DNA from: a virus
Lineage: Duplodnaviria > Caudoviricetes
IMG/VR virus record: IMGVR_UViG_2547132424_000002
DNA length: 64,000 bases
Direction: 5' to 3' (one strand)
In this document: one piece after another, positions 1,158-29,373 of the stretch
Position numbering within the stretch: the stretch's first letter is position 1
Layout of the letters: the number at the start of each line of letters is the position of its first letter
Notes under the pieces: model-generated
Database searches by the model: none
What the model was told of the DNA's origin: nothing
Seen by the model: only the letters and a program-made list of their open reading frames with translations
Translations under genes and position numbers: made by a program

Positions 1158-1758
1158 CCAGATACCGGACGCGCGTAAGCCAGCCCCGTTCAGCGATGGT
1201 GATCTCAGAGAGTTCGCCACCGGCCTCACCACGGCGAGCAATTCCTATGCGGCAGTGCAAGACCTGTCGACCGAACTGCTCGATGCCCGCGGCCGACTCG
1301 ACGAAGTTTGCCGCCTCCACGCGAAAGCGGCCGACGGGCTGGCGCAGGCCCGCGGCTGGGCTGCCTGGTTCGCCGCCGAACGCGACCACATCTACCGGGC
1401 GCTCCACGCCATGGAAACGGACCGGAATCAGCTACGCGCCCGGGTCAGCGAACTGTCCGCGGGCCAGGGCGAGTTGATCCGGAAGCTGTCGAAAGCGTCG
1501 GCTCGGCTGTGCGAGCTGGACGACGCCGCAGCTGCCGCTGGCGCTGCGGCGCGTGGCGGACTGTTCGCGGTCCCTGCCCCGGAGCCCGCACCGTGCCCGA
1601 CCTGCAACGGCGCAGGGCGAGTAGCGAACACCGACGACCAAGAGCCGTGGTCGGCGTGGTCGAACCTGCCGCCCGGATCCGACGCCGCGGTCCGTCTCGG
1701 CCTGGTGCGACCGATCCCGTGCCCGACCTGCAACAGCGAGGAGAACGACCGTGGATAG
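1150..1758 (+). CDS. Coiled-coil protein with C-terminal CxxC zinc finger
   Basis: CPTCNGAG and CPTC motifs; coupled overlaps. Confidence 0.7.
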   Translation: MTDQIPDARKPAPFSDGDLREFATGLTTASNSYAAVQDLSTELLDARGRLDEVCRLHAKAADGLAQARGWAAWFAAERDHIYRALHAMETDRNQLRARVSELSAGQGELIRKLSKASARLCELDDAAAAAGAAARGGLFAVPAPEPAPCPTCNGAGRVANTDDQEPWSAWSNLPPGSDAAVRLGLVRPIPCPTCNSEENDRG

Positions 1759-2308
1759 TGCTCAGACCGTCTACTGCTACGACCTCGAATTCCTCGAGGA
1801 TGGACGCACCATCGAACTCATCTCCATCGGCCTCGTGTCCGAGACCGGCCGCGAGTACTACGCGGTCAACGCCGACATGCCGGTCGATCGGATCAAGAAC
1901 AACCGCTGGCTGATGAACAACGTGTGGCCGTCGCTGCCTCTGCGCGGGCGCAAGGTGAACACCGGCTATCCGAGCGGCGAGAGCGTCGGCGTACTCGACA
2001 CCGCCTCGACGTTGCTGCGCCCCCGCTGGGTGATTGCGAACGAGGTCCGCGAATTCCTCCTCGCCGAGGACGAACCCGTGCTGTGGGCGGATTTCGGGGC
2101 CTACGACCATGTGGCCCTCTGCCAGCTGTGGGGCCCGATGATCCGGAAGCCGGAAGGCATCCCGATGTTCACCCACGACCTCGAGCAGGCTATCGCGCTG
2201 GTCCCCGGGTTCGTGAAACCCGAACAGGCCGAAGGCCAGCACAACGCGCTCGAGGATGCCCGCCACAACATGCGCGTCCTGCGTGCACTGTGGGAGGCCG
2301 CTCGATGA
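1751..2308 (+). CDS. 3'-5' exoribonuclease, DEDDh family (Rv2179c-like)
   Basis: YDLEFLEDG (ExoI), LISIGLV, ADFGAYDHV (ExoII), HNALEDA (ExoIII). Confidence 0.88.
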   Translation: MDSAQTVYCYDLEFLEDGRTIELISIGLVSETGREYYAVNADMPVDRIKNNRWLMNNVWPSLPLRGRKVNTGYPSGESVGVLDTASTLLRPRWVIANEVREFLLAEDEPVLWADFGAYDHVALCQLWGPMIRKPEGIPMFTHDLEQAIALVPGFVKPEQAEGQHNALEDARHNMRVLRALWEAAR

Positions 2309-2787
2309 GCGACATCCGTGTAATCGTTACCGGCTCACGGGATTACCCCACCCCGGAGCATGTGCACGCTGCGCTGACCGCCGCACTGTTTACGTGTTGC
2401 GGCGGCCCGTCCGCCACTCTCACCGTCGTGCACGGCGCCTGCCCCACCGGCGCTGACGCCTTCGCGCACGAATGGTGCCAGCAGACCGACAACATCGTCG
2501 CGGGCGTGCTCGAGGAACCGCATCCGGCGGACTGGGACACCTGCACCCCGGCCTGCTACCACCGGCCGCGCACCAACCCCGACGGCAGCAACCGCTGCCC
2601 GGCCGCGGGACCGCGCCGGAACACCGAAATGGTCGAGCGCGGCGCCGATCTGGTCCTCGGATTCCCGCTCGACGGTCCGCGCAGCAAATCCCGCGGCACC
2701 TACGACTGCATGGACAAGGCCATCGGCGTGATCCCGGTCTGGTTCCGCACGCCCAGCGCACACGAATTGACGGAGGCCCGCCGATGA
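2305..2787 (+). CDS. SLOG-family protein (DUF2493/YspA-like)
   Basis: VIVTGSRDY, VVHGACPTGAD, AGPRRNTEM, SRGTYDC motifs; ATG at 2305 overlaps upstream stop. Confidence 0.85.
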   Translation: MSDIRVIVTGSRDYPTPEHVHAALTAALFTCCGGPSATLTVVHGACPTGADAFAHEWCQQTDNIVAGVLEEPHPADWDTCTPACYHRPRTNPDGSNRCPAAGPRRNTEMVERGADLVLGFPLDGPRSKSRGTYDCMDKAIGVIPVWFRTPSAHELTEARR

Positions 2788-3539
2788 CCAGCAACGAGGA
2801 ACAACGCCACGCCGAGATCATCGAAGTCGACGGCGGCCGAATGCTCATCCACGGCCGCGAGCCGCTGGACGAAGCGAGCCGCGCCGCGGTGCTCGAGGTC
2901 GCCCGGTCAGCGAAGGCGTTGGTGGATGCGGCCCGGCCGACCGACGAGCAGATGCGGAAGTGGTCCGACAAGCTCGCCGGTATGCCGACCAAGGGGTTGG
3001 GTGCGCAGTTCCTGGCCGGGCGGCTGCTCCGCGAGCTGGAAGCCGAGCGCGCCCGGCACGCCGAAACCGAGGCGAAGTACCAGGAGTGCGAGGCACACCT
3101 GACCACGGCACTGGACCACATCGACAAACAGGCTGTGCCGCAACCTGATACGACCCGGATCGAACAGGCTCTGGTCATCGCCTGGGATGACGGCAACGCC
3201 ACCGGACTCGACGGCTGGACCGGGCCCGGCCGCGGCGCCGGAGATGTCGACGACGAAGCGATCCGCCGCCGCAATCGCTCGCTCCGCAAGCTCCTGACCG
3301 AACTCGCCCAGCCAGCCAGCGTCCCACCACCGGTCACGGTCGGGTACCTGGTCGGCTGGCAGGACGACGACAGCCAGGTCCGCGTCGAGCTGGACGAAGA
3401 AGAAAACATCGTGTCCGGCGCGAGCACCAACGCGTACGCCTACATCGGCGACGCGCGGGAGTTCGTTGCCGAGCTCGGGCCCAGCGACCCCGACACCCAA
3501 TTCAAGGTCTACGGACTGCGGGAGATGCCCAATGCCTGA
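2784..3539 (+). CDS. Phage hypothetical protein
   Basis: MTSNEEQ start overlapping upstream TGA, with GGAGG RBS. Confidence 0.7.
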   Translation: MTSNEEQRHAEIIEVDGGRMLIHGREPLDEASRAAVLEVARSAKALVDAARPTDEQMRKWSDKLAGMPTKGLGAQFLAGRLLRELEAERARHAETEAKYQECEAHLTTALDHIDKQAVPQPDTTRIEQALVIAWDDGNATGLDGWTGPGRGAGDVDDEAIRRRNRSLRKLLTELAQPASVPPPVTVGYLVGWQDDDSQVRVELDEEENIVSGASTNAYAYIGDAREFVAELGPSDPDTQFKVYGLREMPNA

Positions 3540-4380
3540 CCAGACACCCGAACCGCCCATCGACATCGAGGATCTCACCCCCGCTGGCCCGATGTCCGGT
3601 AGCCCGAACTATGAAGACAACTGGCGACTTCAGTGGATGCGCGAGCAGGAGGAAGCGCGCGCACGCCAGACTGCCGACCCGGTCTCCCTGCCATCGGATG
3701 CCGCGCTGGCCGATCTGCGTGCCCGGCTCATCGAGGACGGCGTCATCCCGCCTTCGGACGACCCGGCGCCCGAGATCACACCTGCCGCACGCAGGTTCGC
3801 CGAGGACATGACCACGGCCAACCGGATGCCGTTCGCGGAACTGGTCGTGCGGTACGCCCGTGCCCTGTCCGCGCTCCGGACCGTGCAGGCATCCCGCTAT
3901 CAGTGGATGGGCATCGCCCAGCATTTGCAGTCCTACGGCCGGAATATGCAGCAGGTCGCGGCGACCAACGCGGACGCTCATGACCGTTTGCGCGATCGTG
4001 TCGCCGCGGAGGAACGTCGCACAGGCGAGGCGGCCCGTTTGCTGGCTGCCGAGAGCGCGCAGGTGGCCACCTTGAAGGCTGATCGCAACGTCATCACCGG
4101 GCAGCTTCGGGGGTCGCGGATGCTTGTGTCCGAACGTGATACCGAACTGGCCGTCGCCCGCGCCCGTATCGCCGAGTTGGAGCGTCTTGTCGACGTCGCC
4201 GAGGAGTCGCGCACGGATCTGATTGGGCAACTCGACAGAGCCAATGCTCGCGCCGCCGAGCTGGAGGAGCAGAGCGGGTTGCAGGCCGCATATGAAGCGT
4301 GGCTTCACGGTCAACACGGCATCGACGAGAGCTACTACAGCGACTTCTTGGAATGGCGGAAGGAGGCGACCGGTGCCTGA
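3532..4380 (+). CDS. Coiled-coil phage hypothetical protein
   Basis: MPDQTPEPP start, GGAG RBS, ARARIAELE coiled coil. Confidence 0.7.
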   Translation: MPDQTPEPPIDIEDLTPAGPMSGSPNYEDNWRLQWMREQEEARARQTADPVSLPSDAALADLRARLIEDGVIPPSDDPAPEITPAARRFAEDMTTANRMPFAELVVRYARALSALRTVQASRYQWMGIAQHLQSYGRNMQQVAATNADAHDRLRDRVAAEERRTGEAARLLAAESAQVATLKADRNVITGQLRGSRMLVSERDTELAVARARIAELERLVDVAEESRTDLIGQLDRANARAAELEEQSGLQAAYEAWLHGQHGIDESYYSDFLEWRKEATGA

Positions 4381-12976: not shown

Positions 12977-13081
12977 GCGTGGCCCCCGGACTGTTTGTCG
13001 CGGCCGGAGTCCGGCTGCTCGGCCAGGCCGTGAAACGCCGGTGTGAAATCAGTTCGGGGGCAGCGTCGATGATCCGCTACA

Positions 13082-13140
13082 GTGTCGGCACTTCCGGTGC
13101 GGAGATCCGAGGTTCCTTCACTTTTGGTTGAAACCGACAC
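13082..13140 (+). ncRNA. Candidate small structured RNA in the Y RNA cluster
   Basis: GTGTCGG/CCGACAC closing stem; inner TTCA/TGAA hairpin; TTGGTTGAAA shared with the element at 13364. Confidence 0.4.
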
Positions 13141-13182
13141 CTCGGGCACTTATTTCTCGGGAGCACAACTTCAGAGTGTGGT

Positions 13183-13319
13183 GATCGCCCGGTGTGTTGG
13201 AACTGGGGTTACTTCTTGCAGAGAAACGCGGGTTCGAATCCCGTCGGCGGCGACTGGTGTCGTCGTCGTGGCTGAGCGGCCTAAGGCACTTCCTCGGACC
13301 GTTTTTTCTCGGGCGATTC
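13183..13319 (+). ncRNA. yrlA: YrlA-type Y RNA (circularly permuted tRNA mimic)
   Basis: Closing stem GATCGCCCG/CGGGCGATT; T arm GCGGG-TTCGAAT-CCCGT (13228-13244); 10-bp acceptor-like stem closed by a TGGT loop (13245-13268); D arm TGGCTGAGCGGCCTAAGGCA (13269-13288); directly upstream of Ro60. Confidence 0.85.
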
Positions 13320-13339
13320 AGCACCTCGTGTGAGGGCCT

Positions 13340-13412
13340 GGTGCGTGGGCGGTGGATACTTCCTTGGTTGAAATCCCTTCGGGGACTGCGGGTTCGAGCC
13401 CCGCGTGTGCCA
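13340..13412 (+). ncRNA. Degenerate tRNA-like RNA (UGG anticodon-like loop)
   Basis: GU-rich 7-bp acceptor stem, weak D arm, TTC-CTTGGTT-GAA loop, TCCC-TTCG-GGGA variable arm, perfect T arm GCGGG-TTCGAGC-CCCGC. Confidence 0.6.
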
Positions 13413-13480
13413 TCGCCGATCTTTCTCAGGCTCTTCACACCACACTCTGGACACGTGCACCCCCTGACCAAGGGGACAGC

Positions 13481-15043
13481 ATGTCCAAGTTCAATACCGG
13501 CACCACCCGTCCCGTCGCGCACGGGCCGATCCGGACCGACACCACCGCCACCGGCACCACCTTCGAAGGTGCGCCCGGCTACGCGCGTGACGCGCAGTCT
13601 GAACTTTTCCTTCTCGCGGTGACGAACATGGTCGGCGAGGACACCTTCTACGAGCAGGCCAGCGACCGCGACAACCGGTTCGCTACCCTCGTCCGCCAGG
13701 TCGCGCTCACCGACTTCGACTGGCTCACCCGGTTCGCGCATTGGCTGCGCACCGAGGCCAACATGCGGTCCGCGCCGATCGTGCTCGCCGCCGAGGCCGC
13801 GAAGGCGCGTCTCGATGCAGGGGAATCCGGCGGCCGCGACATCATCAAGACGGTGCTGCAGCGCGCCGACGAGCCCGGCGAGATGCTGTCCTACTGGCAC
13901 ACCCACTACGGGCGGAAGTTGCCGAAGCCGGTCAAGCGTGGCATCGCCGACGCAGCCCGGCGCCTATACCGCGAGCGCAGCTACCTCAAGTGGGACAGCG
14001 ACACCCGCGCCATCCGGTTCGCTGACGTCATCCAGCTGACCCACCCCGATCCGGACGGCGCGCAGGCCATCGACGACCTGTACCACTATGTCATCGGCCG
14101 CCGGATCGGTGTCGAGCATCTCTCCATCCCGGACACCCTGGCGACCCTGCGCGCCAACGCCGAGTTCAAGCGCCGCACGGGTGAAGACATCGACCGGATG
14201 GCCGCCGACGGCAGCCTGGAGCAGGTGCTCGCCGACGCAGGCATGACGTGGGAGGCACTGTCGGCGTTCGGTGCCTGGACCGCGGCGCGGTGGGAGGCGA
14301 TGATCCCGTCCATGGGGTACATGGCTCTCCTGCGAAACTTGCGGAACTTCGACCAGGCAGGTGTGTCCGATGTGGTCGCGGCGACGGTCGCGGCGCGCCT
14401 GTCCGACCCGGACGAGGTGGCGCGGTCGCGGCAGTTGCCGATGCGGTTCCTGTCCGCTTACCGGGCAGCGCCGTCCCTGCGGTGGTCCTATCCGCTGGAG
14501 CAGGCGCTCGACGCATCGCTGGCGAATGTGCCGGAGCTGCAGGGCCGCACGCTGATCATGATCGACACCTCGGGTTCGATGCGCTCGGCGTTCAGCAAGG
14601 ACGGAACGCTGATGCGGTGGGATGCCGCGGTGGTGTTCGGGCTGGCTCTCGCCCGCCGCTGCCAGACCGCCGATGTGGTGTCGTACTCGAACGACGGGAT
14701 CCGGTTCCAGCTCGAGCCGGGCGAATCGTTGCTACGTTCGATCGAACGGTGGAAGACCGGCGGCTACTTCATCGGCGGGGGAACCAACACCGCCGGTGTC
14801 ACGCAGGCCGCGTACGACCGCCACGACCGCGTCGTCATCCTCACCGACGAGCAGGCGTCTGGGCGCGATCCGGGCGCGGTCATCCCGAAGACGGTTCCGC
14901 TGTACACCTGGAACCTCGCCGGACATCGGCTGGGACACACCGGTGGCGCACCGAACCGGCACGCCTTCGGCGGACTGTCAGATGCCGCGTTCAAGATGAT
15001 CCCCCTCCTCGAGCGGGGCCGTGATGCGGAGTGGCCGTTCTGA
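13481..15043 (+). CDS. rsr: Ro60/Rsr RNA-binding protein (TROVE + vWA)
   Basis: ELFLLAVTNMVGEDTFYE, MRSAP, MGYMALLRNLRN, vWA MIDTSGSM, GGGTN, VILTDEQ; ATG after AAGGGG RBS. Confidence 0.95.
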   Translation: MSKFNTGTTRPVAHGPIRTDTTATGTTFEGAPGYARDAQSELFLLAVTNMVGEDTFYEQASDRDNRFATLVRQVALTDFDWLTRFAHWLRTEANMRSAPIVLAAEAAKARLDAGESGGRDIIKTVLQRADEPGEMLSYWHTHYGRKLPKPVKRGIADAARRLYRERSYLKWDSDTRAIRFADVIQLTHPDPDGAQAIDDLYHYVIGRRIGVEHLSIPDTLATLRANAEFKRRTGEDIDRMAADGSLEQVLADAGMTWEALSAFGAWTAARWEAMIPSMGYMALLRNLRNFDQAGVSDVVAATVAARLSDPDEVARSRQLPMRFLSAYRAAPSLRWSYPLEQALDASLANVPELQGRTLIMIDTSGSMRSAFSKDGTLMRWDAAVVFGLALARRCQTADVVSYSNDGIRFQLEPGESLLRSIERWKTGGYFIGGGTNTAGVTQAAYDRHDRVVILTDEQASGRDPGAVIPKTVPLYTWNLAGHRLGHTGGAPNRHAFGGLSDAAFKMIPLLERGRDAEWPF

Positions 15044-16221
15044 TGCCGGTGACACAGTACGGCGAGAAGTTGCTGTCGTGGGCGGTCGAGTTCGACGGCG
15101 CCACGATCGAGCAGGCACGCCAGACCGCGAGTATGCCGTTCGTGGCCCCGCACGTCGCGCTCATGCCCGACGCGCACAGCGGGCGCGGCGCCGCGGTGGG
15201 AACCGTCATCCCCACCGTCGGCGCCGTGATCCCTGCGGCGGTCGGTGTCGATGTCGGCTGCGGGATGGCCGGGGTCGAGACCCGCTACACCGCAGCCGAT
15301 ATCGCCGGGAAGGACCTCGCGCTGCTGCGGGAGGCAATTGAGAAGGCCATCCCGCTCAGTCCCGGCAACTACAACGACCGGATCGGCCGTGACCATACCG
15401 CGGAGCGGATCACCGAGTTGGAGGAGCTCGCGGCCCGCAACGGTGTCGAGCTGACGCATTCGCCGAAGTGGCGCGAGCAGCTCGGATCACTCGGGGGCGG
15501 CAATCATTTCATCGAGTTGTGCCTCGACGAACGCGATCACGTCTGGCTGTTCCTGCACTCGGGGTCCCGCGGTGTCGGGAACAAGATCGCCCAACGGCAT
15601 ATCAAGATCGCGCAGAAGCTGTGCAAGCAGTGGTGGATCGATCTGCCCAGCCCAGACCTCGCGTACCTCGTCGAGGGCACACCTGAGTTCACCAGCTACA
15701 TCAAGGAACTCGCGTGGGCCCAGAAGTTCGCCGCCCTCAACCGGGCGGACATGCTCGACCGGTTCGCGACCGAGTTCGCGCGCTGGCTCGGCACCGACGA
15801 TCACGGCGAGGTCGACCGCATAATTTCGCACCACAATTACACGCGTCGTGAGCGACACATGGGCCGGGACGTGTGGCTCACCCGCAAGGGCGCCGTCGAC
15901 GCGCACGCCGGTGTCCGGTCGATGATCCCGGGCAGCATGGGCACCTCCTCGTTCGTCGTCGAGGGCAAGGGCTGTGTGCCCGCGCTGTGCTCGGCGCCGC
16001 ACGGCGCCGGTCGTCGCATGTCGCGCACCGAGGCGAAGAAGCGGTTCACCGCCGAGGACCTCGCGGCGCGGATGCAGGGCATCGAGTACCGGCATGGTGA
16101 GGAATGGGTCGATGAAATCCCCGACGCCTACAAACCGATCACCGAGGTGATGGCCGCTGCGGAGCCGCTGGTTTCGGTACTGCACCAGCTACGCCAATTG
16201 CTAAATGTGAAGGGTACATAG
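15043..16221 (+). CDS. rtcB: RtcB RNA ligase
   Basis: MPDAHSG, VGVDVGCG, GSLGGGNHFIE, HSGSRG, HHNY, RKGA, PGSMG, HGAGR, DEIPDAYK. Confidence 0.97.
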   Translation: MPVTQYGEKLLSWAVEFDGATIEQARQTASMPFVAPHVALMPDAHSGRGAAVGTVIPTVGAVIPAAVGVDVGCGMAGVETRYTAADIAGKDLALLREAIEKAIPLSPGNYNDRIGRDHTAERITELEELAARNGVELTHSPKWREQLGSLGGGNHFIELCLDERDHVWLFLHSGSRGVGNKIAQRHIKIAQKLCKQWWIDLPSPDLAYLVEGTPEFTSYIKELAWAQKFAALNRADMLDRFATEFARWLGTDDHGEVDRIISHHNYTRRERHMGRDVWLTRKGAVDAHAGVRSMIPGSMGTSSFVVEGKGCVPALCSAPHGAGRRMSRTEAKKRFTAEDLAARMQGIEYRHGEEWVDEIPDAYKPITEVMAAAEPLVSVLHQLRQLLNVKGT

Positions 16222-16225
16222 GCGA

Positions 16226-16912
16226 ATGGACACCTTGCTCCTTGAGGGCGTGGTCGGGTCGACCGCCTACGGACTCGACCACGCGGACAGCGACACCGAC
16301 TACGCCGGTATCTACCTCGAGCCCACCGAGCGGCTACTCGGTCTGCATCCGCCGAGCCGGGAGCGCGCGACCCGTAAGGGCCGTGGCGGGGCGGACGCGA
16401 CCTATCACGAGCTCGGCAAGTCGATGTCGCTGATGCTGTCGTGCAACCCGACCGCGACGGAGATCTTGTGGCTCGACAATTACACCCTCACAACCGAATT
16501 CGGTGAGGAACTGATCGGGCTGCGGCAGGGTTTCCTGTCCGCGAAACGAGTCCGTGACGCGTTCTTCGGGTACGCGACCAGCCAGTTCCACCGGTTGATC
16601 GACCGCGGCCGTTTCCAGGGGTCGCTGGAGACCCGCAGAGAGAAGCACGCCCGGCACACGATGCGGCTGTTGTGGCAGGGCTACGAGCTGTACACCACCG
16701 GTGTGCTGCCGATCCGGGTGCCGGATCCGGGACCGTATTTCGAGTTCGGCCAACGCATCGTGGGCGATCCCGAGGCGAAGGCCGCGCAGGAGCTGATCAC
16801 CCACTACCAGCTGAAGTTCGACGCTGCCCGCACCGTGCTGCCCGATGAGCCGGACGAGGCTCCGCTCGAGGATTTCCTGCAGCGGGTCCGGAAAGCGAAC
16901 ATGGCCGCATGA
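16226..16912 (+). CDS. rlaP: Pol-beta superfamily nucleotidyltransferase, RlaP (RNA ligase-associated) family
   Basis: VGSTAYGLDHADSDTDYAGIY (GS..DxD), HELGK, CNPTATEILW, KHARHTMRLL. Confidence 0.88.
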   Translation: MDTLLLEGVVGSTAYGLDHADSDTDYAGIYLEPTERLLGLHPPSRERATRKGRGGADATYHELGKSMSLMLSCNPTATEILWLDNYTLTTEFGEELIGLRQGFLSAKRVRDAFFGYATSQFHRLIDRGRFQGSLETRREKHARHTMRLLWQGYELYTTGVLPIRVPDPGPYFEFGQRIVGDPEAKAAQELITHYQLKFDAARTVLPDEPDEAPLEDFLQRVRKANMAA

Positions 16913-17511
16913 CGAACGTCTGGTTCACCTCGGACCTGCACATCGGTCATCGCATGGTCGCCGAACTCCGCGGCTTCACCGACCCGGCCGACCACGATGA
17001 CGCTCTGGCCGCGAACTGGGACCGGGTCGTGCGGCCGGATCATCAGGTGTGGGTGCTCGGCGATATCTCGGTGGGCGGAAAGGCCAACGAGATCCGTGCA
17101 CTGGAATGGATCGCGGCCCGGCCCGGGACGAAACACCTCGTGGCCGGCAACCACGACTCGTGTCACCCGTACCGCAGCCAGGCGCACAAATGGCAGCGCA
17201 TCTACCTCGATGCGGCGTTCGCGTCGGTGCAGCAGTCCGCGGTCCGGAAGATCGCCGGGCAGCGGGTGTTACTGTCGCACTTCCCGTTCCAGGGCAGCGA
17301 GGACGGCGACCACACCGCAGAGAATCGGTTCGAGGAATGGCGGCTCCCCCGCATCGGCGAGAACACGTCACGGTGGCTCCTGCACGGGCACACGCACTCC
17401 CGAGACCCGGGCCACGGCCCGCAGCTGCATGTCGGTCTCGACGCGCATGCTCTCGCACCGGTGCCGCTGGATTGGGTCGAGTACATGATCGAGAGCGACC
17501 CGCCGTTCTGA
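16909..17511 (+). CDS. Calcineurin-like metallophosphoesterase
   Basis: FTSDLHIGH, VLGD, AGNHD, LSHFP, LHGHTH. Confidence 0.93.
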   Translation: MTNVWFTSDLHIGHRMVAELRGFTDPADHDDALAANWDRVVRPDHQVWVLGDISVGGKANEIRALEWIAARPGTKHLVAGNHDSCHPYRSQAHKWQRIYLDAAFASVQQSAVRKIAGQRVLLSHFPFQGSEDGDHTAENRFEEWRLPRIGENTSRWLLHGHTHSRDPGHGPQLHVGLDAHALAPVPLDWVEYMIESDPPF

Positions 17512-17515
17512 CCGG

Positions 17516-17555
17516 CTACAGATCACCACAGACGAATACAGATCACTACAGATCC
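17516..17555 (+). repeat. Four tandem imperfect 10-bp repeats
   Basis: CTACAGATCA CCACAGACGA ATACAGATCA CTACAGATCC. Confidence 0.75.
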
Positions 17556-17575
17556 CTGGAGAGGGCGAACAGACC

Positions 17576-17722
17576 GTGAGTTCAGCACCAGAACGAGATC
17601 CGATCGCGGACCTGTTCCGTCGTGGCTTCGAGGCGTACGGCGAGCGTCTCGCCGAGGAGTGCCCAGGCGACCCGGATGCCGGTTGGGAGCGACTCAGAAA
17701 GGACATCGAGGGCGGAGTCTGA
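17576..17722 (+). CDS. Small hypothetical ORF or gene remnant
   Basis: GGAGAGG RBS, GTG start, 48 aa. Confidence 0.35.
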   Translation: MSSAPERDPIADLFRRGFEAYGERLAEECPGDPDAGWERLRKDIEGGV

Positions 17723-17990
17723 TCCGGAGCGCGGTGGGCTCGAGATCCTGTCCCGGATCCCGTAGGGTTTCTTCTCGGCTGGGTTGCACCCTTTTTCGAG
17801 GGAGGGATGAGTGCCGCAACTCGCGTGACCCGGTCGCTGCGCCGCAGTTTCTGCGGTTGCCCTAGGGCCGCTGCTCCATTCCCCCGGAGCGCGGCCCTAG
17901 TCGCGTCCCGGGGCCGACCGGCTGGACTAGGGGTAGAAACCGACCGGAACCATTCAACATATGGGCTGGCCTCGGGTTATCGTGGGCGAC

Positions 17991-19136
17991 ATGGGCGAGC
18001 AATACAGCGAGAACGAGGCTTCACCCATGCCTGCCTCGCGCGAGTTCGGGGCGTTCAAATTCGCTGGCGGCCGATACGACACCGTAGGCCTGCCGGTTCA
18101 CGCGATGTCTGAGCTGCAGCGTTACGCCAAGCTCGTCGGCATGGTGGCCCACGCTCTGTATCTGGAGCAGAACACCGACCGGCGCCGCGTGCCTCAGGGG
18201 TTCTCCGAGGCGCTGGATCTTCGCCTGACGGCTATCCACCCGGGCAGCGTGCAAACGGTGCTGGAATGGACCGGCTTCGACACTGCCGACCAACCGATCG
18301 TCGACGCGCATGAAGACGCCCGCGCACTCGTCGACCGAACTTTCGAGGAACTCGCCCATTCCGGCCAGCTCCCGAAGGAGTTCCCGCCCAAGGCGCTTGG
18401 TGTACTCGGTCAGTTCGGCCGCAGCCTGCGCGATGACGAACGCATCGAGCTCGGCACCTACCGGGATCAGCGTGCGGTCGTGAACACTCACATCCGTGAG
18501 CGGCTGGCGGCGGTAGCGAACTTCGAGACCATCGACGTCGAACGGGTGCTGATCGGCCGTATCACGGGGATCGAGTCATTGCCTCGACACTCGTTCACCC
18601 TGGTACTTGCTGGGCCGGACGCCAAACGCTTGGATTGCGGATTCGCCGACCCGGAGACATTCACGGCGATCGAAGAATTCGTCGGCTATGCCCGCGATGC
18701 GCCGTTGTGTGCGCTCACCGTGCTCGCTGAGCAGCGCACCAGCGGCGAACTCACGGTCACCGATGTCCTCGCGGTCGAGACCGCACTTCCGCCCGACTGG
18801 GTCGCGCGTGTAGCTGCCCTGTCGGAAATCAGAGATGGCTGGCTCAACCCCGAGACTCCACGCCCGACCGTCGAGTCGATCGATGTTCTCGAGCTGCTAC
18901 TCGCTCGATGCGTGGAGCACAACATTCCTCGCCCGCTGATGTACCCGTCGGCCGAGGGCGGTGTCCAGCTCGAATGGCGGCGTGAAGCGAGTGGCCTGGA
19001 GATCGAGATCTACAACGCTCGCACTGTCGACGCTTCCTGGTTCGCGCTCGACAGCGAACGCAGCGAAGACGCATCGTTCATGTTCACCGATATCGATCAG
19101 ATCGTCGAATTCATCGTGGGGAATCTGCATGACTGA
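17991..19136 (+). CDS. Uncharacterised ~370-380 aa protein (cassette gene 1); start uncertain (17961, 17991 or 18027)
   Basis: Long ORF with globular composition; C-terminal MYPSAEGGVQLEW segment. Confidence 0.8.
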   Translation: MGEQYSENEASPMPASREFGAFKFAGGRYDTVGLPVHAMSELQRYAKLVGMVAHALYLEQNTDRRRVPQGFSEALDLRLTAIHPGSVQTVLEWTGFDTADQPIVDAHEDARALVDRTFEELAHSGQLPKEFPPKALGVLGQFGRSLRDDERIELGTYRDQRAVVNTHIRERLAAVANFETIDVERVLIGRITGIESLPRHSFTLVLAGPDAKRLDCGFADPETFTAIEEFVGYARDAPLCALTVLAEQRTSGELTVTDVLAVETALPPDWVARVAALSEIRDGWLNPETPRPTVESIDVLELLLARCVEHNIPRPLMYPSAEGGVQLEWRREASGLEIEIYNARTVDASWFALDSERSEDASFMFTDIDQIVEFIVGNLHD

Positions 19137-19572
19137 GAAGGCAGAGGCCGGTGGCGTCGAAGTAGAACTCGACGACGCCAACGAACTGGTCTGGCGCAAC
19201 GTGAATCCGGGTTTCCTGGACAATGGTGTTCTCTCGTCGCAGGCTTTCCGGCCGACGCCGAAGGACAAGTCGAAGTTGTCGGGCGCCCGGCAGGCGAAGG
19301 TGTCGGCGGAGAAGCACTTTCACGAGTTCACCACCGAGCTCAATCTGTCCTCGGCAGGTGTGTGGGCGGTATCGGTGGCTGAAGCCAATGCGCAAGACGT
19401 GCGCTGCGTGTACGACGCCGAAGCGGCCACCCGGCCGCCGGACCCGTGCCCCGCTGGCCATACATATTTCGACTTCCAGCCCCACGGCACCGGTGCCCGC
19501 AAGCGCATCAGCCGCGTCCTGAGCGACAAGGCCGCCGCGCGCGGCTGTCAGCACTCTCGGCCCGAGGAATAG
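19129..19572 (+). CDS. Uncharacterised 147 aa protein (cassette gene 2), possible ART-like fold
   Basis: Coupled to gene 1; LVWRNV...SSQAFRPTPKD.SKLS...GH pattern. Confidence 0.7.
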   Translation: MTEKAEAGGVEVELDDANELVWRNVNPGFLDNGVLSSQAFRPTPKDKSKLSGARQAKVSAEKHFHEFTTELNLSSAGVWAVSVAEANAQDVRCVYDAEAATRPPDPCPAGHTYFDFQPHGTGARKRISRVLSDKAAARGCQHSRPEE

Positions 19573-19636
19573 ACCTGCGCCGCGAACGGCCCGGTGGTAC
19601 TCGAGATCGTGTGAAATTGGCCCTAGCCTGTTATCT

Positions 19637-20296
19637 ATGGGCAACTCGATCCGGCCGTGCACGTACCCCGATTGCGCTGACCGCAACGGCGACCCTGAGC
19701 TGACTTCCGAGGGGATGTGTCCGCGGTGCCAGAAACGGTTCGCGAAGCTCCTTGGCTGGCTCGTCATGGACTGGGTACACCTGGCCGTCGAATTGCCGAT
19801 GCCGGCTGCCCGCGGTGCTGGGGAACGCCGGACAACGCAGAAGGTGTACGGGCATCCGGCGGAATGGGCATCCGATACCGCGGCGGAAATCGTCGCCGTG
19901 CTGAACGAAACCCACGATGCGCTCGCTGACCACCTTGGTGCTTCGTCGGCGCCGCATCCGGGGATCACGGAGCGGGCCCGGGTCCGGGCGGCTTGGAATT
20001 TCCTCGAGTGCCGTATCCCCCAGCTCGCCGCCTACGGCGGCGGCCGCGACGCGGCGATCGATTTCCGTGACCTGCATGGCATGGTCCGCTCCCGCCTCGG
20101 TCTCACCCGCCCCCGCCAGCTGCTACCGACGCCATGCCCGTCGTGCGAGTTGAGGACATTGTTCCGGTCGATCGATGCGTACAACGACAGTATCGAGTGC
20201 GGGAACTGCGGGCACACGATCCGGGAGGCTCATTACCCGTTCTATACGCGGGTGGTGCTCGACACGCTGATCAACGGTGAGAGCGCCGCGGCATGA
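19637..20296 (+). CDS. Zinc-finger phage protein, putative late transcription regulator
   Basis: CTYPDC/CPRC N-terminus and CPSC/CGNC C-terminus; located before the late region. Confidence 0.7.
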   Translation: MGNSIRPCTYPDCADRNGDPELTSEGMCPRCQKRFAKLLGWLVMDWVHLAVELPMPAARGAGERRTTQKVYGHPAEWASDTAAEIVAVLNETHDALADHLGASSAPHPGITERARVRAAWNFLECRIPQLAAYGGGRDAAIDFRDLHGMVRSRLGLTRPRQLLPTPCPSCELRTLFRSIDAYNDSIECGNCGHTIREAHYPFYTRVVLDTLINGESAAA

Positions 20297-24043: not shown

Positions 24044-24988
24044 GTGGAGATCGTCGAATTGAGAATCGCGTTTCTCGGCAACTTCCAGGTCGACTATTGC
24101 TCCGAGGTGCACCACGCGAAGTCGCTGGAGTCCCTTGGGCACACGGTGGTCCGGCTGCAGGAGACTGTCGCCTCGTCGGACGAGGTCCTCGCCGCAGGAT
24201 GCGCCGCCGATCTGTTCGTGTGGGTGCATACGCACGGCTGGAACACCCCGGGCGATATCGGGGCCGCGATCCGCGCGCTCCGCACCGCCGGTGTCCCGAC
24301 GCTGTCCTATCACCTGGACCGGTGGCTCGGCCTCCGCCGCCAGGCCGACATGCGCGCTACGGAGCCGTATTGGTCGCTGGATCACTTCTTCACCTGTGAT
24401 GCGGCACAAGCAGATTGGCTGAACGCGCACACCAACATGCGCGGCCACTACCTACCGGCCGCCGTGTTCGGTCCGGAGTGCTACATGGCCGCCCCGCGCA
24501 CCCGTTTCGATGTCGCGTTCGTCGGCAGCAAGGGCTATCACCCGGAGTATCCGTACCGGCCGAAGCTGATCGACTGGCTGGCCTCCACGTACGGTGACCG
24601 GTTCCGGCACTACGGCGGCGGTGGCCTGCCGACCGTGCGCGGCGCCGACCTCAACGGCGTGTACGCCGACGCCCGCGTGGTGGTCGGTGACAGCCTGTGC
24701 CTGGACCCGGACTATCCGGGCATGTACTGGTCCGACCGGATCTACGAAACCCTCGGCCGCGCAGGTTTTCTCATCCATCCGCGGCTCAAGGGCCTGGAGA
24801 ACCACTTCGGCCCGGAGCATGTCGTGCTGTATGAGCACGGCGACCTCGAGCAGTTGCGCGAACTGATCGACTACTACCTCGCCAACCCCAGCGAGCGGGA
24901 GACGATCCGGCGCGCCGGGCACGAGCATGTGAAGGCCAACCACACCTACGCGCACCGGTGGCAGACCATCCTGGAGACGATCGCGTGA
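24044..24988 (+). CDS. Glycosyltransferase (GT-B, CgeB/Glyco_trans_1_2-like)
   Basis: FDVAFVGS, YWSDRIYETLGRAGFLIHP, HTYAHRW. Confidence 0.9.
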   Translation: MEIVELRIAFLGNFQVDYCSEVHHAKSLESLGHTVVRLQETVASSDEVLAAGCAADLFVWVHTHGWNTPGDIGAAIRALRTAGVPTLSYHLDRWLGLRRQADMRATEPYWSLDHFFTCDAAQADWLNAHTNMRGHYLPAAVFGPECYMAAPRTRFDVAFVGSKGYHPEYPYRPKLIDWLASTYGDRFRHYGGGGLPTVRGADLNGVYADARVVVGDSLCLDPDYPGMYWSDRIYETLGRAGFLIHPRLKGLENHFGPEHVVLYEHGDLEQLRELIDYYLANPSERETIRRAGHEHVKANHTYAHRWQTILETIA

Positions 24989-25572
24989 CCGCGGCCGAGC
25001 GCGAGCACTGGCTGTCGATCACCGACGACCCGGACTGGCGCCGCAACTACATCCACGACCCCGCGATCAGCGTCGACGAGACGGTCGCCGTGATCACCGC
25101 GGCCGCCCCGCCGCAGCCGGGCCGGATCCTGGAACTCGGTTGCGGGTACGGGCGCCTCACCCGCGAGATCGGCCGCGTGTACCCGGAAGCTGTGATCATC
25201 GGCCTGGACATCAACCCGGACGTCCTCGACGTCGCCCGCGGCTACGACCCGCGCACCACGTTCCTGTACGACGAGCGGCTCAGCCACCTCAGCACCACGC
25301 TGGACCTCATCTACTCGGTGGCCGTGTTCCAGCATCTCCCCGACGGGGAGAAGCAGGCGTACATCGCGCAGGCATCCACCGTGCTGGACGCGGGCGGTGT
25401 GCTGCGTGTCCAGTTCATCGCCGGGGACCGCGACGACCACCTCGATCACTGGGTGCCCGCCGACCGCATGATCCGATGGGCACGGGCCGCTGGATTCGCT
25501 GATGTCTCGGTCGATGAAGGCTTGGCGCATCCGCAGTGGGCGTGGCTGACCGCGGTCAAGGCGGCGCGATGA
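24985..25572 (+). CDS. Class I SAM-dependent methyltransferase
   Basis: ILELGCGYGR, GLDIN, DLIYSVAVFQHL. Confidence 0.9.
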   Translation: MTAAEREHWLSITDDPDWRRNYIHDPAISVDETVAVITAAAPPQPGRILELGCGYGRLTREIGRVYPEAVIIGLDINPDVLDVARGYDPRTTFLYDERLSHLSTTLDLIYSVAVFQHLPDGEKQAYIAQASTVLDAGGVLRVQFIAGDRDDHLDHWVPADRMIRWARAAGFADVSVDEGLAHPQWAWLTAVKAAR

Positions 25573-27979: not shown

Positions 27980-28220
27980 CCGGCCCATTCCCACGATCGG
28001 GCGCAACGTCCACTTCCAGACCTACGGCACCCCCGGCGGGGAATTCCCGTCGCAGACGTGTGCCGCGATCATCACCCACGTCTACCCCGATGACGAACCC
28101 GATAAGGGCGACATGGTCGATCTGAAGGTGATATACCGCAACGGCGACTCGTACAAGACGTTCGTCAATCGTGCTGACGAGCCCACGCCCGGGTGCTGGA
28201 ACTGGCCGCCCCGCGTCTGA
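27972..28220 (+). CDS. Conserved small phage protein
   Basis: PTIGRNVHF, AAIITHV, WNWPPRV. Confidence 0.75.
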   Translation: MADRPIPTIGRNVHFQTYGTPGGEFPSQTCAAIITHVYPDDEPDKGDMVDLKVIYRNGDSYKTFVNRADEPTPGCWNWPPRV

Positions 28221-28338
28221 TGCTCGCTGGATACGCAAAACCCGGCTCACCAACCGTCCGGATGGCTGCCGGGTCCACTTCCAGGACGCTACGGCGTCCG
28301 GCGCACGCGACCGTAGCACTCGAACCGGAAGGACCTCG

Positions 28339-29373
28339 GTGAGGATCGGTCTGATCGCCCGCGCGGACAACACGGGCCTCGGTGTCCAGACCTACGAATT
28401 CGCGCAGCACATGCGGCCCGCGCGGGTGCTGGTCGTCGACATCAGCCACATGAAACGCAACACCCTGTTCCCGAACCGGTACCCGGGCGCGGACATCGTG
28501 CGCGGCTTCCCCACCGAGCGGCAGTTCGCGCGCTTTCTCGACGATGTCGATGTGGTGTTCACCGCGGAGACACCGTACGGGCCGTGGCTGTACCCGATGG
28601 CCGAGCAGCGGGGCATCCCGACGGTCCAGCAGTACAACTACGAGTTCCTCGATCTCAGCACCGGATCGCCGACTGTGCTGGCCGCCCCCACCTTGTGGCG
28701 CTTCGAGGACGTCGAGCATCCGAACCATCAGCATCTGCCGGTGCCGATCGCCACCGAGCGATTCCCGCGACTGGGCCACATGCCCACCGCGACCCGCTTC
28801 CTTCACGTCGCCGGCCGCCCCGCGGTCCACGACCGCAACGGCACCGCCGATCTACTCGACGCGCTGCGCATGGTCCGCTCCCCGATCGAGGTGACGATCA
28901 CCTGCCAGGACCGCCAGTACGTCGGCGGCCTGCTGTCCTCGCGAGCGATGCCAGCGAACGTGCACCTCACGGTCAAGACGATCGACGTGCAGAACTACTG
29001 GGACCTCTACACCGGCCACGACGTGCTGATCATGCCGCGCCGCTTCGGCGGCCTGTGCCTGCCGGTCAACGAAGCACTCGGCGCCGGAATGCCGGTGATC
29101 ATGCCCGACGTCAGCCCGAACCACACCATGGTGCCCAGCGAATGGCTGGTACCCGCGACCAGCGGCGGCGAGTTCAAGGTCAGGCAGATGGTCGATCTGC
29201 ACACCGTCGACCACCATGCCCTCGCGGACAAGATCGACCAGTTCGCCAGCGACCACGCCTTCTTCCAGCAGTCAGCCGCGACCGCGCTGGCGCTGGCCGA
29301 CGTATACAGCTGGCGCGCCCTGAAGCCCCGCTACGAGCAGCTCCTGAACGCCCTGGTGCCCGCCCCGGCATGA
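28339..29373 (+). CDS. Glycosyltransferase (GT-B, GT4-like)
   Basis: RIGLIARADNTGLG; PRRFGGLCLPVNEALGAGMPVI. Confidence 0.9.
   Translation: MRIGLIARADNTGLGVQTYEFAQHMRPARVLVVDISHMKRNTLFPNRYPGADIVRGFPTERQFARFLDDVDVVFTAETPYGPWLYPMAEQRGIPTVQQYNYEFLDLSTGSPTVLAAPTLWRFEDVEHPNHQHLPVPIATERFPRLGHMPTATRFLHVAGRPAVHDRNGTADLLDALRMVRSPIEVTITCQDRQYVGGLLSSRAMPANVHLTVKTIDVQNYWDLYTGHDVLIMPRRFGGLCLPVNEALGAGMPVIMPDVSPNHTMVPSEWLVPATSGGEFKVRQMVDLHTVDHHALADKIDQFASDHAFFQQSAATALALADVYSWRALKPRYEQLLNALVPAPA

Follow-up and report, generated by a model that had tools for sequence, protein, structure and literature searches.

A compact assembly of Ro60, RtcB, RlaP and metallophosphoesterase genes behind putative tandem Y RNAs in an actinomycete prophage

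Why would a temperate phage carry genes for RNA sealing, RNA 3'-end extension and RNA surveillance side by side, and would their products act together? The question is raised by a locus in the 64,000-nucleotide viral stretch (Duplodnaviria; Caudoviricetes) of the IMG/VR record IMGVR_UViG_2547132424_000002, hereafter the window. Four intact genes lie there head to tail on the + strand at 13.4-17.5 kb, namely rsr (Ro60), rtcB, rlaP and a metallophosphoesterase gene, and three tandem RNAs predicted to be of the Y type head the operon. The reading favored here, to which a probability of about 0.6 can be given, is that of a prophage cassette for RNA repair and RNA surveillance, built from four independently mobile actinophage modules and co-directional with the early and late genes. 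Every part of the locus is already known in phages, and the joint action of RtcB, RlaP, Ro60/Y RNA and phosphoesterases has already been predicted in the literature; only the compact assembly is unusual, and it is not a new system.

The identities originally predicted for these intact + strand genes are borne out by Pfam and PHROGs matches for all four, each of which also has a strong third-position GC signal, and their tight coupling can be read directly from the sequence. The rsr/rtcB junction is TGATG, where the A at 15043 is common to the stop codon TGA (15041-15043) and the start codon ATG (15043-15045). Four nucleotides separate the rtcB stop (16221) from the rlaP ATG (16226), and rlaP and the phosphoesterase gene overlap by the ATGA at 16909-16912. 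The longest frame for Ro60 begins at GTG 13352; this start was rejected in favor of the ATG at 13481, which is preceded by the ribosome-binding site AAGGGGA, and 13352-13480 is a Y RNA stretch and not coding. Regarding expression, no promoter was found by a sigma-70 consensus scan, terminators were detected at chance level only, and the sigma-54 pattern TGGCAC-N5-TTGC is not seen near the operon, its only matches being far away and at chance level. A candidate -10 hexamer TACAGT just upstream of the array is a possible start of one precursor spanning both the Y RNA array and the operon.

The catalytic signatures of RtcB, RlaP and the phosphoesterase, as well as the metal ion-dependent adhesion site (MIDAS) of Ro60, are intact. 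Ro60 matches the Pfam TROVE domain (2.3e-16), with VWA_2 and vWA_Ro60 under the cut-off, and phrog_850 (5.5e-56) over residues 19-513; its MIDAS residues D362, S364 and S366 are invariant among 45 relatives, and the PDB entries 9l5y and 9kop, both named 'TROVE domain-containing protein', are matched at 8e-30. RtcB matches its Pfam family over its full length (3.6e-111) and phrog_1075 (8e-150), and its metal- and guanosine monophosphate-binding motifs DxGCG, NHF, HSGSRG, HHN and PHGAGR align with solved RtcB structures and are invariant in 31 relatives. RlaP matches PF10127 with 1.5e-23 and 84 bits (cut-off 23) and phrog_388 with 1.4e-34. Its nucleotidyltransferase signature GS-x9-DSDTD is present as GSTAYGLDHADSDTD, corresponding to the family pattern hG[GS]-x9-13-DxD, and no solved RlaP homologue was found by sequence search. 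The phosphoesterase matches Pfam Metallophos_2 (1.9e-06) and phrog_547 (6e-50) and has the complete metal-binding set (DxH, GD, GNH[DE], H, GHxH), with D9, H11, G51-D52, G80-N81-H82-D83, H124 and H159-G160-H161-H163 invariant in 31 sequences. Its AlphaFold model (predicted local distance difference test, pLDDT, 94.6) has as top solved match 1xm7 (TM-score 0.72-0.77), i.e., Aquifex aq_1665, a protein without assigned function, while lambda phosphatase, YfcE, LpxH and Mre11 match at the level of the superfamily fold only.

Regarding the RNAs, a single YrlA-type RNA had been recognized before the operon. That RNA is real (13185-13316), but it is one of three Y-type RNAs, all on the + strand and 48-391 nt 5' of rsr, the first of which (13090-13164) lies upstream of position 13183, where the operon had been taken to begin. 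Two covariance models were built with the window left out, R1 from 35 YrlA units of relatives and R2 from 30 short units of relatives. The family structure of R1 comprises 31 pairs, 21 of which have compensatory changes. Across the 64-kb window, R1 has two significant matches, both directly 5' of rsr on the + strand, the remaining match at 46133-46190 being at chance level (9 bits, E 3.3). The matches of R2 are likewise confined to this stretch and strand. The short RNA would fold into a closing stem P1, an internal loop with UGCG, a stem P2 and an apical loop, without a tRNA-like domain. The unit at 13185-13316 has P1, P2, the UUACUUC motif, the V region, the T arm GGUUCGAAUCC, a 10-bp acceptor-like hairpin and a class-II-like D arm, and its YUAY motif is UUAC. 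The third RNA (13334-13433) retains P1, P2, UACUUC and the T arm and is without the acceptor-like hairpin and the D arm, both of which are present in the matching second unit of three related loci (L010, L011 and L082). The order V, T, acceptor-like stem, D defines YrlA (PMC4201824); with a long terminal stem around it, it is complete in 13185-13316 and partial in 13334-13433.

The evidence for these Y RNAs is comparative, since single-sequence folding of the three RNAs only weakly beats shuffled sequences (z -1.3 to -2.2). An Rfam search of the 505-nt non-coding region 12977-13480 returned no Y RNA family at the gathering threshold or at E<=10, only weak chance-level tRNA and Vault matches being seen. 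When upstream regions were compared from 151 Ro60-anchored loci, close relatives of the window were found to harbor tandem units of about 130 nt with an invariant CCCGGUGCG 5' block, UUACUUC, a T arm, a variable hairpin, a D arm and a UCUCGGG 3' block. In the phage lineage of the window, L010, L011 and L082, the first YrlA unit has the class-II-tRNA-like D arm GGCYGAGYGGCCUAAGG, and the second unit of the three relatives has a canonical AGCUCAG..GGUAGAGC D arm, which was lost in the window through a deletion of about 40 nt. A 5' GNCGAAN0-1G motif has been proposed as the Ro60 contact (PMC4201824); the exact GNCGAA is absent from the 5' ends of the window's units, and in the actinobacterial family a GYCGA block is found on the 3' strand. 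Short units with stems and a UUACUUC loop and without tRNA-like module are common at Ro60 loci, and at least one YrlA unit can be found within 1 kb upstream in 125 of 146 Ro60-anchored loci, in arrays of one to three or more. At loci with RlaP only, with the phosphoesterase only or with RtcB, RlaP and phosphoesterase, L264 alone has a YrlA match, weak and partial. Such arrays are thus normal for Ro60 loci and not special to this operon.

The operon sits in an integrated temperate phage. The window spans G000:C1:6513484-6577483, where G000 is a high-GC actinomycete genome of 8.35 Mb in a single contig, and the loci most closely related to it come from Nocardia species. A perfect 48-bp direct repeat, in sequence the 3' end of tRNA-Gly(TCC), constitutes the attachment (att) sites at window positions -23509..-23462 and 64063..64110 and brackets an element of 87.6 kb, just beyond the left end of which a tRNA-Pro is found. 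After the integrase adjoining the left repeat come a helix-turn-helix repressor on the opposite strand and then the early genes, and the virion genes (terminase, portal, major capsid, an 1865-aa tape-measure protein and a minor tail protein) are found at 32-50 kb. In five genomes of the same genus (G047, G243, G025, G102 and G181) the site is empty, the flanks being less than 1 kb apart, which identifies the element as an insertion. The phage location originally assigned to the operon therefore holds, and the att repeat, integrase, virion genes and empty sites rule out an origin of the locus as a host island. Within the element, the operon is placed between early recombination genes and late structural genes, in the same orientation and without a divergent regulator.

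The host genome has related genes of its own. Its Ro60 (G000:C1:7063196-7065314) is 58% identical to that of the prophage and has two YrlA units (91 and 32 bits) in front of it, and its RtcB (G000:C1:6425069-6426286), unlinked to the host Ro60, is 45% identical. Recent copying of host genes was considered as the source of the prophage rtcB and rsr and rejected, since the host paralogues share just 45% and 58% identity with them and viral contigs hold their closest relatives; both prophage proteins fall in viral clades. Splicing of phage tRNAs as the role of RtcB can be ruled out as well, since ARAGORN found no tRNA or tmRNA within the 64-kb window. The absence of RtcA (PF01137) and RtcR (PF06956), already predicted, extends to the whole genome, where no PF09414 RNA ligase was found either, and no AAA_33-type kinase was found inside the prophage. 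As no other RNA ligase was found, RtcB is the sole ligase available to the cassette.

Table 1. Features of the prophage locus and related loci (positions refer to the window unless another sequence is named).
Feature	Position	Strand	Remarks
Candidate -10 hexamer TACAGT (TANNNT type)	13078-13083	+	Read from sequence; 6-7 nt 5' of first Y RNA
Short Y-type RNA (predicted)	13090-13164	+	R2: 40 bits, E 6.5e-07
Full YrlA-type Y RNA (predicted)	13185-13316	+	R1: 67.5 bits, E 7.2e-13, full length
Second YrlA-derived RNA (predicted)	13334-13433	+	R1: 42.1 bits, E 2.3e-07; R2: 39.5 bits
rsr, Ro60 orthologue, 520 aa	13481-15043	+	TROVE ring and vWA domain with MIDAS DxSxS
rtcB, 3'-phosphate/5'-OH RNA ligase, 392 aa	15043-16221	+	Pfam RtcB, phrog_1075
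rlaP, PF10127 Pol-beta nucleotidyltransferase, 228 aa	16226-16912	+	Pfam RlaP, phrog_388
Calcineurin-like metallophosphoesterase, aq_1665 type, 200 aa	16909-17511	+	Metallophos_2, phrog_547
Tyrosine integrase, 447 aa	L005:723-2066		Adjoins left att repeat
L163, IMGVR_UViG_3300037418_003165	90.5-kb viral contig		RlaP-phosphoesterase, 2-kb gap, two YrlA, Ro60, RtcB
L275, Logan contig SRR19330272_8211	89.5 kb		Y RNAs-Ro60-RlaP-phosphoesterase; without rtcB
L279			RlaP/phosphoesterase (ATGA overlap), RtcB four small genes further on
L271			RtcB-RlaP-phosphoesterase
L272, L273			Y-Ro60-RtcB
L251-L253, L276			RlaP-phosphoesterase pair
Same genome, second element	G000:C1:4444663-4445915		RlaP-phosphoesterase pair
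Gordonia phage OneUp (KU998245.1, L285)	2234-4197		Metallophosphatase gp62 and RtcB-like gp63, one base in common; then homing endonuclease

The linkage of the four families is recurrent but variable. Among phage records, 710 have a match to RtcB, 626 to the phosphoesterase and 287 to RlaP, and the gene neighborhoods compared show the families meeting repeatedly and in several orders (Table 1), but each gene usually alone. The full set can be found in one further locus only, L163, in a permuted order and with 88% identity to the window for RtcB, 71% for RlaP, 67% for the phosphoesterase and 61% for Ro60. L275 is collinear with the window over the Y RNAs, Ro60, RlaP and the phosphoesterase at 72-75% DNA identity, and between rsr and rlaP its 76-nt spacer is exactly replaced in the window by rtcB (15049-16220), an exchange which indicates that the operon was put together via single-gene cassette insertion. 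Considering all fetched loci, the phosphoesterase directly follows RlaP in 8 independent cases out of about 32 RlaP loci, and RtcB directly follows Ro60 in 2 out of about 156. The second RlaP-phosphoesterase pair of the same genome, with 58% (RlaP) and 70% (phosphoesterase) protein identity, adjoins a PF00589 integrase-like match at 4442837 and is probably on another integrated element. Of the five RtcB proteins nearest to that of the window (>=80% identical), four are encoded beside a TROVE gene, and these TROVE proteins are just 28-61% identical to that of the window, a divergence that points to linkage under selection rather than to shared descent. In the isolated actinophages VanLee and Neville the genes are scattered, with Ro60 apart from the ligase and the nucleotidyltransferase, and in Xanthomonas phage MET23-P3 Ro60 is found alone.

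The closest studied system is the rsr-yrlBA-rtcBA operon of Salmonella Typhimurium, where Ro60 and RtcB are likewise encoded co-directionally with Y RNAs, two in number, of which one has a tRNA-like module (PMC4201824, PMC7790460), and for which a role in the response to RNA damage has been proposed. RtcA, the activator RtcR, a sigma-54 promoter and the chromosomal location set the Salmonella operon apart, whereas in the window the Y RNAs are three in number and precede rsr, RlaP and the phosphoesterase are added, and the genes are borne by a prophage; the locus is accordingly not an Rtc (RtcR-RtcA-RtcB) system. That RlaP and the phosphoesterase might replace RtcA and RtcR, as first suggested, finds no support, RtcR being a regulator and neither enzyme being a cyclase. 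The yrlA-yrlB-rsr locus of Mycobacterium smegmatis resembles the window in having Y RNAs 5' of rsr on the same strand, with no RtcR control, one of them a full tRNA mimic (T arm, acceptor-like stem, D arm) and another with the T arm only. There, a single precursor encoded 5' of rsr is processed into YrlA and the T-arm-only YrlB (PMC4201824). In contrast to the window, RtcB, RlaP and the phosphoesterase are not attached to rsr in M. smegmatis and mycobacteriophage loci.

As in the window, RlaP is found directly 3' of RtcB in the Pseudomonas rtcB-rlaP-rtcA operon under RtcR (bioRxiv 10.64898/2025.12.29.696909), which unlike the window has RtcA and RtcR and is without Ro60, Y RNA and an RlaP-coupled phosphoesterase. 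The mismatch between the 3'-OH left by RlaP and the 3'-phosphate required by RtcB is common to both. Gordonia phage DatBoi combines RlaP with an ATP-dependent 5'-phosphate RNA ligase and a polynucleotide kinase, a set that suits the chemistry of RlaP, while Gordonia phage OneUp shares with the window a one-base junction at rtcB, there with a phosphatase gene, and the 6 kb around its rtcB contain nothing that matches RlaP or Ro60 of the window; neither phage joins all four genes with Y RNAs. T4 Pnk/Rnl1 is the paradigm of phage RNA end healing and sealing. Phage-borne Ro60 with YrlA was documented in 2014 in 22 phages (PMC4201824), phage RtcB, RlaP, TROVE proteins and phosphoesterases have been reviewed as RNA-repair counter-defence (PMC7824862), and RlaP is known in rtcB operons, so that the original description of the locus as an undescribed system finds only partial support.

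How could the parts act together? The three-Y-RNA array, probably made as one precursor as in M. smegmatis, would load Ro60. By analogy with studied systems (PMC4201824), the resulting particle would attach to RNA ends that are damaged or misfolded and draw in host factors, perhaps including enzymes reached via the tRNA-like module. RtcB would directly seal breaks with a 2',3'-cyclic phosphate or 3'-phosphate and a 5'-OH, e.g., those made by metal-independent ribotoxins. Where nucleotides have been lost, the simplest reading of the gene set is that the phosphoesterase would strip the 3' or cyclic phosphate and so let RlaP extend the 3'-OH by one or two nucleotides. In lytic growth, tRNA and rRNA would thereby stay working in hosts that cut RNA on infection, and the phage would gain. 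We infer what the phosphoesterase acts on, in which order the steps follow, when the genes are expressed, that a physical complex may form and that there is an anti-defence benefit. The last is the existing interpretation of such phage genes (PMC7824862), and the position of the cassette among lytic-cycle genes fits it. RlaP adds one or two nucleoside monophosphates to the 3'-OH of RNA, with a preference for damaged RNA, and has been proposed as an antidote to nucleotide-excising ribotoxins (bioRxiv 10.64898/2025.12.29.696909).

As for the phosphoesterase, it is translationally coupled to RlaP in the window and to RtcB in OneUp, so that it stands out as the candidate end-converting enzyme. Bacterial CCA-adding enzymes offer a parallel for such a nucleotidyltransferase-phosphohydrolase pair. 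A fuller version of the scheme must be considered doubtful, according to which the aq_1665-type phosphoesterase would be the missing end converter of RlaP and RtcB, readying the 3' end for RlaP or restoring a ligatable end afterwards, while Ro60-Y RNA would present the broken RNA, the whole amounting to a complete 'trim, refill, seal' path that reverses nucleotide-excising (RloC-like) ribotoxins.

Several points weigh against an RNA repair and surveillance cassette acting as a unit. The 3'-OH product of RlaP is not joinable by RtcB, which needs a 3'-phosphate, as flagged by the authors of the RlaP study themselves (bioRxiv 10.64898/2025.12.29.696909). No characterized close relative of the phosphoesterase was found by sequence or fold search, so that an RNA-end activity of this enzyme is a guess; an NCBIfam search returned only PdeM, below threshold, and close homology to a demonstrated RNA 3'-end healing phosphoesterase was not found. 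Regarding linkage, RtcB is found downstream in none of the 151 Ro60-anchored loci and is mostly alone among 72 RtcB-anchored viral loci, many of them in mycobacteriophage genomes, no partner is present at any of 11 sampled RlaP-only and 6 sampled phosphoesterase-only loci, and the closest RlaP genes are mostly solitary. As rtcB is a gene-sized indel relative to L275, its adjacency could be mosaic chance. Finally, the gene set of a prophage could equally serve the lysogen.

This last possibility leads to the best surviving of the other explanations, which is nevertheless improbable, namely that expression from the resident prophage, or expression induced by the SOS response, helps the host against RNA damage by stress, antibiotics or competitor toxins rather than helping phage replication. 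The element is indeed an integrated prophage, with a candidate promoter of its own for the cassette just before the Y RNAs. The equivalent Salmonella operon is reported to be a host stress response switched on by damaged tRNAs, with prophage genes affecting its expression (PMC7790460, PMC9879122). However, the host already has a Ro60 with two YrlA units as well as an RtcB, the same genes are present in strictly lytic actinophages, and the cassette, lacking a divergent regulator, is co-oriented between the early recombination and the late structural genes.

It is distinctly unlikely that the operon is a mosaic coincidence, i.e., that independent accessory genes were gathered in a recombination-prone region and that Ro60/Y RNAs, RtcB and RlaP/phosphoesterase act separately. 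The precise rtcB indel relative to L275 and the unrelated 2.1-kb indel right after the phosphoesterase gene are what such a history would leave, and so is the clear preponderance of solitary over linked occurrences of each gene. Yet the four families meet in at least six orders with divergent alleles, start/stop overlaps are seen at three kinds of junction (Ro60/RtcB, RlaP/phosphoesterase and phosphoesterase/RtcB), and four of the five closest RtcB relatives adjoin a TROVE gene whose product is just 28-61% identical to that of the window.

Most improbable is a takeover or decoy, in which Ro60-Y RNA would divert host PNPase or tRNA-binding enzymes, or the Y RNAs would soak up tRNA nucleases, with RtcB and RlaP maintaining these RNAs and not host tRNAs. 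In its favor, Y RNA tethers Ro60 to PNPase in Deinococcus and Salmonella (PMC4201824), tRNA enzymes act on YrlA modules, as RNase P and CCA addition do in M. smegmatis (PMC4201824), and the window has three Y RNAs of differing architecture and no tRNA genes. Against it, arrays of one to three units are usual at Ro60 loci without RtcB and RlaP.

Other features of the prophage can be listed beside the cassette. A second indel relative to the collinear L275 begins right after the phosphoesterase stop, a 2.1-kb block (17517-19654) that contains a short open reading frame (ORF), a hairpin, a 391-aa ORF (17961-19136, phrog_30544) and an overlapping ORF of about 150 aa; the three to four ACAGATCAC-like repeat copies that open the block (17517-17560) support its being a separate inserted accessory block ('moron'). 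Further RNA-related genes of the same prophage, at window positions 1751-2308 and 24958-25572, encode a protein with an Rv2179c-like 3'-5' exoribonuclease domain (Pfam 5.7e-11) and another that matches phrog_4752 'tRNA methyltransferase' (8e-10), and two glycosyltransferase genes are present at 24044-24988 and 28171-29373. The right-hand 7 kb (57-64 kb) has alpha/beta-hydrolase genes in both orientations, possibly cargo or else lysis genes of the LysB kind.

To our knowledge, none of the phage Ro60/Y RNA systems has been tested for function. The link from RlaP, with its 3'-OH product, to RtcB, with its need for a 3'-phosphate, is an acknowledged open problem of chemistry, and this locus brings together within 4.4 kb all the candidate players, including three predicted Y RNAs and a phosphoesterase that recurs beside both RlaP and RtcB. 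With no other ligase, kinase or cyclase found to confound the outcome, it constitutes a convenient natural construct for studying both what phage Ro60 does and how the ends used by RlaP and RtcB can be made compatible. Should the phosphoesterase turn out not to be an RNA-end enzyme, the locus would be compact but otherwise unremarkable among phage accessory genes for RNA repair; should it turn out to be one, a function would be gained for a family that is present in more than 600 phage records and carries a generic annotation only.

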